Assembly (NCBI RefSeq): GCF_003018255.1
Contig: NZ_CP027440.1
From: Escherichia coli
GTDB lineage: Bacteria; Pseudomonadota; Gammaproteobacteria; Enterobacterales; Enterobacteriaceae
Reading direction: 5' to 3' (one strand)
Length of the DNA: 64,000 nt
Shown: in pieces, positions 37,801-40,800 of the stretch
Layout of the letters: every line of letters starts with the position of its first letter
Numbering within the stretch: position 1 is the stretch's first letter
Made by a program: the position numbers

Positions 37801-40800
37801 TCAAATCCAGCATCGTCCATTGCGACAACACCCCGTGATATTGCAACCGATAATTTTTTTGCTGTGCGCCAGTAAAAACCGCCTTTAATCCCAAGGCGTT
37901 TTCTGACTTTGTCATTTTTGGCTTCGTAATACAGTGCAATTTCTTCTTTATCAGTGCTCATTGATAAACCTCATAACTATTTTAAGGTTGTACGAATCCC
38001 TGCCATTGCTGGCATGCTTAATCAACGGGTATGGCGTTAATACGGCTGGCGGGTTATCCAGCCGGTATTTCGTTATTCAGGTACTGCGATACTTTGTTTA
38101 ACGGGAGACATTCACCGGAAATTTTTTGCTCGTCTCTTGCCTGATGGCAGGATTCTTTACTGGCATAAATTCCGGTAATCACATTCTGTGGCTCACCTGT
38201 TATCAGAAAAACCGTCATCATCAGTGCAAACGCTGAACTCACTGCTGCCCTCCGAAAATGCCAAGTTCAAGAAGGGCAATTCTGGAGAGTATGGAATTAT
38301 CATTGAGAAGATAAGGCTCATATTTTCTCATCCTGATGGCGTCTTCAGTAAACTCCCGGTTACTGAGCAGAATACCAATATTAAAACACCCTTCAGACGT
38401 ATTAACGTTTGGTAGTGACGTTTCCATTATCGCGTCCTCAACAATGAATTTTGTGATGTGGTGCCTGGTGCCTCCAGGTGACGTTAACCAGTTAACAATT
38501 AACGCCGGATTGTTAGTTGATGTCTGTTACGCCAGTAAAAGACCGCTTGTTTTAACTGTTCCGCGTGCGCTTAGCCGCATTCACCGCATCACAAAATACA
38601 CTTTAAAAATGGCGGATATCCATTTCCGCCGAATCACCAGAAAAGTGATAACAGAGGTTGTTGTGGCGGTGTTGTCACTCAGGCGTATGGTCAACCTGAC
38701 AACCCGGTGCATTTTCTGGAGCAATGGAGGAAGCCCCAGCCATACTTACCGCCGCGCCATTTCGCGGATTGCCACAACCGGAAGCGCACGATCGAATTAC
38801 ATTTAACGACGACATATACAGAGAGACTAACTTCGCCGAGCGCTTTCGTGTTGTGTGCCTGCTTTTAACCACGTCAGGCGAGGTGGACCTGTTATTCCCC
38901 AACAACAAGGATCTTGTTAATCTGGATATCCCCAACAACAATAAGAGTATTGAATGTGATCGCTGAATTAACGGCAGCAATGACGGCTATTCGTGAAACC
39001 GCTCAGATTGCAAAACTAATGAACGAGGCAAAAACTCAAGCTGAAGTAAATGCGGCTATTGGTGAACTGAACTCAAAGCTTGCATCTATTCAGCACGAAT
39101 GCGTGTCTCTCGTTGAGCTGGTGAGCACTTATCAAGAAATAAATGCTTCTCTCAAAGCTAAAATTGCAGAATTTGAAAACTTTGAGGCTCAGACGGAAGG
39201 TTATATCCTTAACCAACTTGAGTCGGGAACTTTTGTGTACTCGAAGGAGGTAACCGTGAACGGCGGCAGCATAATCATGCATCTTTGTCCAAAATGTTTT
39301 GGACAAAAGATAGTATCGATACTTCAACCATTCCCGGTTAGAGAATATGAGTTTTTTCATAAAAGCAGGTGCCTCTACTGTGAAAATCAGTTTCTTATGA
39401 ATAAAAATCCGGATTATGTATCGCCTCCATCTATTGAGGAGTTGGCCAGAAAACTGAACGGCAATCTGTAGATTGTTACTGTTATGGATATCCAGATTGT
39501 TAAAGAGCATGCCGGATGCTTGCTTGTGTCCGGCGCGTGTGCACCAGTTCTCCCCGTGGAGGATTCCTTAACTACCAGACTTCATTAGTCAGAGTTTCTT
39601 GCTAACCAGCGACGCGCGCCAGCTTCAGTTTTAAACGTTTTGCTTCTGGTATACGTCATCGCGGTAAACGTGCCGTCCTGGTTGGGAAACACGCCGCATA
39701 CCAGAGATTCGTTGTTGCCAAGATTGAGCGTATCCATGTTGACCTCATTCCCCCTTAACGCCGGGGCGCGGAACTAAAAACCTGCTGCGCTGTTATACAA
39801 AGTGTTCCCGCCGTCATGTTCATACGCCTCGGGCTGGCTACTTAACCCCTGACCACTGCCGGGTAACTCGAAGTATTGCCTGGCGTTCTGTGGGATGGGG
39901 TTGGAATAAAATAAAGTTTAGAAAAATGAACTTTATGAGTCAATGTTTTTTTTATCAAAACATGACAGCAGGCAGCTGTTAAGCCATCAATATGATGGCG
40001 TACAGTAAATTAAGGGGATTAGTTAAATATCTTGTTGAATTTTAAAGCATACACCTAAAATGCGGGATATATCATCCAGCATGATTGATGGGTAGCGTGG
40101 ATTTGAGGGAACTAAGAGGATGTCAGGTCCTTCTATTTCCAATTTACGAATTACTGGTGTAGTTGTTCCTTTTGGTAATGCTAGAACAATATTGCCATGT
40201 TGTGCGGTTCGATCTGGGTCGACAAAGACCGTTGATCCATTCGGAATTGATACACTTCCGCCTGCGGCAGACATACTATCGCTCTCTAGAACTACTGCAA
40301 ATGTATTGACAGAAGTTTCACCAGCGAGCTGAACACAAGAGAGTCCTGAGGTATTTGTCATATAATCACTCCAACTTGCTGCCTGCTGAAGTGATAGTAG
40401 CGGAACCCTTTTTACCGGCGGCAAAGATAGATCACTATATTCACTTATATTTAACACACCTCCATTAAGAAGCCAGTTTTCACTTACTTTCAAGATCTTG
40501 GCGAGAGAGCTTATGTAACGAGCGGATGGAGTACCTCCACCGTTTATCCACTGACTGACAGAGCCCTTTGATGCGCCTGTAGCGATGGCAAGGTGCTTTC
40601 CCTTCAGATTTAGCGCGTTCATGCGCTGAGTGATGCGTTCAGATATTGTTTGCTTAGTCATGTTTTGATTTTAAAACACTAGAGGTTTTGTTTCTTGACT
40701 TTCTTTTGTTTTGATTATTAAACTTTGTTTGTTCAGTTTTCTGGAGTGAACTATGAAAAAATCAGAAGTTTTAGGATATTTTGGCGGTGTTGTTAAAACA

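Follow-up and report, generated by a model that had tools for sequence, protein, structure and literature searches.

The window analysed here is a stretch of 64,000 nucleotides (nt) of Escherichia coli DNA (NCBI RefSeq assembly GCF_003018255.1, contig NZ_CP027440.1) that contains a lambdoid prophage inserted beside potC/potD; this prophage carries the gene for the Shiga toxin (Stx) A subunit and is therefore an Stx-converting phage. In its early-left region lies one gene on the plus strand, of the WP_000559919 type and annotated as "hypothetical protein", which is assigned below to the Rip1 family of prophage proteins. A sequence-only reading had recognised the open reading frame (ORF) at 38914..39471, with a TTG start and 185 residues. 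This ORF is present and its frame proved to be the coding one, whereas its start had to be moved to GTG 38956, giving 171 residues. Each of the 11 genes compared has a start codon aligned with GTG 38956, the frame is interrupted by stops a short distance before this position in three homologs, and a Shine-Dalgarno sequence, AAGAG, stands 8 nt before the GTG; on these grounds the TTG at 38914 was rejected. The same start is given in an identical genome by the NCBI Prokaryotic Genome Annotation Pipeline (PGAP), which annotates only the plus-strand gene here. Eight copies of the gene from E. coli, Salmonella, Citrobacter, Klebsiella and Edwardsiella (53-98% DNA identity, 28 pairs) have a ratio of nonsynonymous to synonymous substitution rates (dN/dS) of 0.12-0.33 in the plus frame, with an excess of third-position differences. 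Because of this ratio and the homologs found across Enterobacterales, the plus-strand ORF is a real conserved protein-coding gene and not a chance ORF.

The family of the protein, which the sequence-only reading had left unassigned, can now be named as the Rip1 family, PHROG 1244. In a PHROGs search, family 1244 (function unknown) is the only significant match of the window protein (E=3e-56). Rip1 of phage HK446 and HkaP of phage HK630 belong to the same family, with E<1e-50 for both the window protein and Rip1. A profile of 36 homologs matches a single solved structure, that of Rip1 in PDB 9oox, at E=6.3e-23 over positions 6-156, nearly the full length; the window protein and the solved Rip1 chain have the same three-dimensional fold. 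The single window sequence finds Rip1 by phmmer at E=1.4e-7, and BLASTP gives 27% identity over 150 residues. An alignment of 139 superfamily sequences places the window protein, Rip1 and HkaP in three deep, roughly equidistant clades, with pairwise identities of 24-26% between these three proteins. Among the classical families of structural or regulatory proteins, none is matched by the window protein. Judged by its sequence, the window gene is a distant Rip1-family member hitherto carried as "hypothetical"; the family being already established, it is not categorically new. A word-indexed protein search gives 119 relatives across Enterobacterales, all unnamed, and a profile search of 1.84 billion cluster representatives gives 3,252. 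A relative annotated as hypothetical (30% identical, tblastn E ~5e-12) is also found in the Mu-like transposable Pseudomonas phages JBD30, DMS3, D3112 (orf25) and MP38, so the family extends beyond lambdoid phages and Enterobacterales.

The architecture of the protein agrees with this assignment. In the AlphaFold model, an amphipathic Ala/Thr-rich helix (residues 2-24) is followed by a long helix (residues 28-79) that ends in a near-invariant LKAKIAEFExF motif, in keeping with the coiled-coil-prone N-terminal half described earlier from the sequence, and a beta-rich zinc-ribbon domain lies C-terminal to the helices. The two cysteine pairs of this domain, CPKC and CLYC, also stand where they had been reported, and the four cysteines (Cys4) are predicted to form the zinc knuckles of the ribbon. 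They are invariant, together with G91 and Y95, among 36 diverse homologs; among the 139 superfamily sequences the four cysteines occur in 99-100% and S-I-L-Q in 81-94%, and both features are present in the window protein and in Rip1. The signature common to the superfamily is Q46, L66, W/F76, Y83, G91, Y95, C111xxC114, S121-I-L-Q124 and C139xxC142. The N-terminal half and the knuckle core are conserved, whereas the loop between the knuckles and the tail (residues 126-171) are hypervariable: the commonest residue has a frequency of 0.27-0.35 there as against 0.66-0.73 elsewhere, and among alleles at least 85% identical, 18 of the 31 variable sites fall in this part, 12 of them in the bin of residues 141-160. 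A surface that recognises a trigger and evolves in an arms race would be expected to vary in this way, and residues 126-171 are therefore a candidate specificity surface that probably sets which rings are recognised. The loop and the tail also differ from those of Rip1. Residues 7-24 are strongly amphipathic (hydrophobic moment 0.44), the highest Kyte-Doolittle mean over 18 residues is 0.8, and the window protein has no transmembrane segment; the N-terminal half (residues 1-80) is a putative oligomerisation and pore segment.

The genomic position of the gene is shared with its relatives. All of its neighbours lie on the minus strand, namely those listed in Table 1 together with the integrase, the excisionase and a DUF1482 gene, so the plus-strand gene is antisense to early-left transcription. 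The gene lies about 550 bp from the cI-like repressor gene, beyond which cro, a YdaT/cII-like gene and the replication genes occupy the plus strand. With a guanine-plus-cytosine content of 0.413, it is poorer in these bases than the prophage (0.500) and the chromosomal side of the window (0.513). The antisense orientation, the nearness to the immunity region and the AT-rich composition claimed in the sequence-only reading are thus all borne out. In HK446, rip1 (gp37) is likewise encoded on the opposite strand and is flanked by N and by the ral/cIII genes; this is where lambda has sieB, and hkaP of HK630 occupies the same place. The earlier analogy with sieB accordingly gains substance, all the more as the DNA upstream of the window gene and of lambda sieB is homologous (see below). 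The window prophage differs from the setting of HK446 rip1 in that it has no N, has an early region of the dicB/RecE/YdaT (Rac/Qin-like) type and carries a Nu1-type terminase. HkaP, an uncharacterised protein about 26-30% identical to the window protein, adjoins N and HkaQ in the N-dependent lambdoid phages HK620 and HK630.

Besides the window, the comparison of antisense family genes beside the immunity region covered HK446, HK630, PhiR49_1 and ten further loci. Window-clade copies stand antisense beside the repressor in at least five backbones: dicB/exonuclease, yfdP/Q, an arm with int and xis only (Citrobacter), a DndB/ParB arm (Klebsiella) and a RecT/exoVIII arm (Edwardsiella). The gene occurs in 645-737 of 5,426 complete E. 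coli genomes, O157:H7 included, and PGAP always annotates it as "hypothetical protein". In Salmonella (loci L010/L011, 4001..5660), a homolog of 71% identity lies antisense directly downstream of a cro-like YdaS gene on the early-right side, so the slot is not confined to early-left operons. In O157:H7 strain TW14359 (L006, 2479..3516), the early-left region has been deleted to within about 30 nt of the left edge of the upstream module described below and the exonuclease is a pseudogene; the gene is intact (98.1% identical to the window copy, dN/dS 0.115) and so is the module, with one core mismatch. This suggests that the gene has been kept by selection in a decaying prophage. E. coli C012 (L008, 3091..3384) has a truncated, apparently decayed copy of a Rip1-like gene. 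In Edwardsiella (L014/L015, 4001..6279), two more plus-strand genes, coding for 228 and 175 residues and lacking a Pfam match, come after the homolog; all three are antisense between exonuclease VIII and an N-like gene, and one variant has a GmrSD_N gene nearby; the locus may be a small defence island.

Table 1. Features of the Rip1-like gene, its upstream module and its prophage in the window
Feature	Coordinates	Strand	Basis or remark
Rip1-family coding sequence, 171 aa, GTG start	38956..39471	+	WP_000559919-type, annotated "hypothetical protein"
N-terminal helical half, residues 1-80	38956..39195	+	AlphaFold secondary structure, conservation, hydrophobic moment
First predicted zinc knuckle, CPKC (C111, C114)	39286..39297	+	invariant; aligns with Rip1 LCAQCY...SILQ
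Conserved SILQ motif, residues 121-124	39316..39327	+	after first knuckle
Second predicted zinc knuckle, CLYC (C139, C142)	39370..39381	+	invariant; aligns with Rip1 RCHRCN
Variable C-terminal part (inter-knuckle loop and tail), residues 126-171	39331..39468	+	low conservation
Shine-Dalgarno AAGAG, 8 nt before GTG 38956	38943..38947	+	sequence; HK446 rip1 has GAGAG at the same position
In-frame 5' extension from TTG, non-coding, part of leader or promoter	38914..38955	+	in-frame stops in three homologs; overlaps conserved upstream module
Conserved upstream module, ~95 nt	38845..38942	+	alignment with DNA before lambda sieB, HK446 rip1 and HK630 hkaP
Hairpin core GCCTG...CAGGC	38857-61, 38875-79	+	in module
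GGTGG	38882-86	+	in module
Direct repeats CCCCAACAACAA	38897-38908, 38930-38941	+	in module
Candidate -10, TAATCT	38918..38923	+	conserved TAAnnT between repeats
Shadow ORF, 145 aa, ATG start, not a gene	39073..39510	-	no PHROG match; stop-free runs opposite all homologs
GC-rich hairpin GCCGGA-N12-TCCGGC, no T-run after it	39511..39534		read from sequence; between convergent 3' ends of the Rip1-like gene and the DUF1391 gene
Two overlapping promoter-like sites, candidate early-left promoters	39915..39958	-	consensus scan only, 9 of 12 matches
RecE-like exonuclease, 814 aa	35517..37961	-	neighbour
dicB	38239..38427	-	neighbour
DUF1391/ydfA-like gene	39585..39737	-	neighbour
cI/LexA-like repressor	40023..40661	-	neighbour
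Shiga toxin A subunit gene, 319 aa	50501..51460	+	PHROG 866, E=1e-210
Small terminase, Nu1-type	58866..59477		prophage gene; large terminase and portal also in prophage

Several non-coding features surround the gene. The hairpin at its 3' end is not called a terminator by a terminator scan, and PhiR49_1 has a clean terminator at the equivalent place. Transcripts from the promoter-like sites near the repressor would cross the Rip1-like gene antisense. The gap between the Rip1-like gene and dicB, which has no annotation, holds a full-length but sub-threshold match to the Rfam small RNA STnc100 at 38395..38612 on the minus strand (33 bits, with the gathering score at 47; E=1.3e-4), directly preceded by a terminator-like hairpin with a T-run (38630..38601, minus strand); DicF itself was not detected.

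The gene is preceded by a module that is also found before lambda sieB, HK446 rip1 and HK630 hkaP. Its counterparts lie at ~34395..34480 in lambda (NC_001416) and at 3335..3430, 3392..3490 and 4343..4445 in loci L002, L003 and L004, respectively. The alignment of the four upstream regions has the invariant core TGCCTG(T)CTTTTA[AG]CCAC[AG]TCAGGC..GGTGG, and the order within the module is the core CTTTTARCCACRTCAGGC, then GGTGG, then two CCCC[AT]ACA repeats 33 nt apart. SieB and the window gene have in common TGCCTG-CTTTTAACCAC-TCAGGC-GGTGG and, after it, the two repeats. The 18-nt core is unique in the window, where none is expected by chance; at least 120 IMG/VR contigs contain it, and the cargo ORFs that follow it there are of more than 30 types. 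Counted by a crude script that takes the first ORF downstream of each copy of the core, the cargo is the superfamily of Rip1, HkaP and the window protein at 28 loci, PHROG 5286 at 17, P22-type SieB/Esc (PHROG 1301) at 11, an ECs_2282-type small zinc protein at 7 and lambda SieB at one, the remainder belonging to more than 25 other clusters or singletons. Apart from sieB, rip1, hkaP and the window clade, the cargo consists of unrelated small ORF families that are mostly uncharacterised (PHROGs 5286, 6315 and 3983 and the ECs_2282 type among them). In 96 unique sequences, conservation reaches to the end of the second repeat; the ribosome-binding site, which is specific to each cargo, starts directly behind it. 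RNA folding of the module is no better than that of shuffled sequence. We infer that the module contains the promoter of the Rip1-like gene, its candidate -10 at 38918 being conserved across lambda, HK446 and the window. In E. coli C012 (L008, 4401..4665), a second core stands before a different plus-strand gene, a putative zinc-binding protein of the ECs_2282 family, so one early-left region can have two cargo slots. A tentative but quite conceivable reading is that the module marks a defence hotspot of lambdoid phages in which the cargo varies, that it may carry a shared control element, which could, for example, silence the cargo during the prophage's own lytic growth, and that the window clade may recognise a ring other than that of Rip1.

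Rip1 is the one member of the family with a solved structure. PDB 9oox is described as "ring interacting pore 1 (Rip1)" with the small terminase of phage T6 and has 12 Rip1 chains; Rip1 itself is gp37 of Escherichia phage HK446 (YP_007111990). Only secondary mentions of Rip1 were found in the literature, and a Nature 2026 paper dated near the PDB release was rejected as its source, as it describes HepS, an unrelated system. In a preprint, Rip1 is listed among the defence systems that sense the small terminase subunit (bioRxiv 10.64898/2026.04.30.721860). The suggestion in the sequence-only reading that the gene serves exclusion or defence is strengthened by this description of the solved family member as a prophage defence protein. 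Since the window protein resembles Rip1 in sequence and fold, with PHROG 1244 membership, the Cys4 knuckles and SILQ, and its gene occupies the same antisense slot behind the same upstream module, a Rip1-type function is the likeliest. The window gene thus probably encodes a Rip1-family prophage defence protein, a moron in the sieB slot that would act by ring-triggered abortive infection. By homology we infer its expression in the lysogen, its trigger and its abortive-infection function.

The course of events proposed for the window protein is as follows. In the lysogen, the gene would be transcribed from its own promoter (-10 near 38918, start near 38930), and would yield a soluble protein, monomeric or in small oligomers, with an amphipathic helical N-terminal half and a Cys4 zinc-ribbon C-terminal half. 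This protein would be inactive at first. Once a superinfecting phage has produced a ring-shaped protein, late in infection, many copies (about a dozen) would assemble on it; in the case of Rip1 this ring is the small terminase (12 chains with the T6 terminase). The assembly would gather the N-terminal helices into a membrane pore, and the pore would kill or arrest the cell before progeny are released. The prophage could be spared in two ways: its own Nu1-type small terminase may not trigger the protein, and convergent early-left transcription may silence the gene in lytic growth. Alleles sharing 93% identity are found together with Nu1-type small terminases whose mutual identity is only 37%, an observation that is not decisive on self-tolerance.

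The proposed system can be compared with other exclusion and defence functions. SieB is a lysogen-expressed abortive superinfection-exclusion function. Lambda SieB (PHROG 6399) and P22-type SieB/Esc (PHROG 1301) share with the window gene the slot, the orientation and the homologous upstream module, but there is no relationship in sequence or fold: SieB is a hydrophobic membrane protein and the window protein a predicted zinc ribbon, and the latter has no significant match to PHROG 6399 or 1301, both of which lambda SieB matches. TerI (small terminase), Avs1-3 (large terminase) and HepS and Tha (tail proteins) follow the same logic, in that each senses a conserved protein which the invader makes late, for its structure or for packaging, and in that the encoding prophage must avoid triggering itself. 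Neither as proteins nor in their effectors (STAND NTPases, HEPN nucleases) are they related to the window system, which is a single small protein whose trigger itself appears to serve as the template for the effector oligomer.

Several points weigh against a Rip1-like mechanism for the window protein. Support for its clade is homology to one characterised member at 24-27% identity, and the pore mechanism of Rip1 is itself taken from the depositors' name and a meeting summary. The three clades being roughly equidistant, the trigger and even the effector mode could differ from those of Rip1. The N-terminus of the window protein is amphipathic (MIAELTAAMTAIRETAQIAK); compared with its Rip1 counterpart it carries more charge and is not as rich in Gly and Ala, and neither is of transmembrane-grade hydrophobicity. 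Pfam and NCBIfam give no significant match, and PADLOC-DB v2 (2023), a library that predates Rip1, gives no family at E<=1. Scanning the plus strand for promoter consensus sequences gave no site of the canonical sigma-70 type.

Of the other explanations, the strongest keeps the fold and the slot and changes the trigger, which would be the portal, another ring or a class of small terminase other than the T4-type gp16. The low identity to Rip1 fits this, as do the hypervariability of the loop and tail even among close alleles, the generic name "ring interacting", the co-residence of 93% identical alleles with divergent Nu1-type terminases noted above, and the presence of a nearly identical hkaP in HK620 (P22-like) and HK630 (lambda-like). 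The sole structure and the sole citing preprint, on the other hand, both name the small terminase, and a different trigger is a serious possibility that falls short of being the expected one. A further explanation is that the protein caps and inactivates the invader's terminase ring and blocks packaging in the manner of TerI or Tab-type assembly blockers, with no pore or cell death. Rip1 does sit on the terminase ring in the solved complex, no stretch of the window protein reaches transmembrane-grade hydrophobicity, and other prophage systems block packaging via the terminase (bioRxiv 10.1101/2025.02.27.640495). However, the depositors named Rip1 a "pore", the meeting report calls the mechanism pore-based, and conservation across the family is strongest in the N-terminal helical half, most of which is unmodelled in the solved chains (124-126 of 164 residues modelled), a pattern that suits an effector better than a passive cap; capping is thus unlikely.

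That the protein is a regulatory or chaperone-like coiled-coil and zinc-ribbon protein unconnected with defence (CT398/HP0958-like, or a DNA- or RNA-binding prophage regulator) is very improbable, and no Pfam or sequence match to CT398/HP0958 and no specific fold similarity to it was found for the window protein. Least of all can the plus-strand ORF be incidental to a real gene in the ATG-initiated minus-strand ORF opposite it, which runs in the direction of early-left transcription: this alternative, rejected here, is contradicted by the plus-frame dN/dS, by stop-free runs of varying length (93-154 residues) opposite every homolog, the solved HK446 Rip1 included, by the lack of a PHROG match and of a PGAP annotation, and by an L/F/K/R/I/N-rich composition typical for the reverse complement of a coiled-coil gene.

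Assignment to the Rip1 family gives a testable function, an abortive defence triggered by the ring of a phage packaging protein, to a "hypothetical" gene that ~12% of complete E. coli genomes carry and that is found, among other places, in Stx-converting prophages of O157:H7, O91, O103 and O113 strains. Such a function could affect the resistance of Shiga toxin-producing E. coli lysogens to superinfection and to therapeutic phages, and it poses the problem of how an induced Stx phage keeps from triggering the sensor that it encodes. The upstream module ties sieB, rip1 and many uncharacterised genes into one exchangeable slot and, if it is a true hotspot signature, would provide a sequence handle for finding new single-gene defences.
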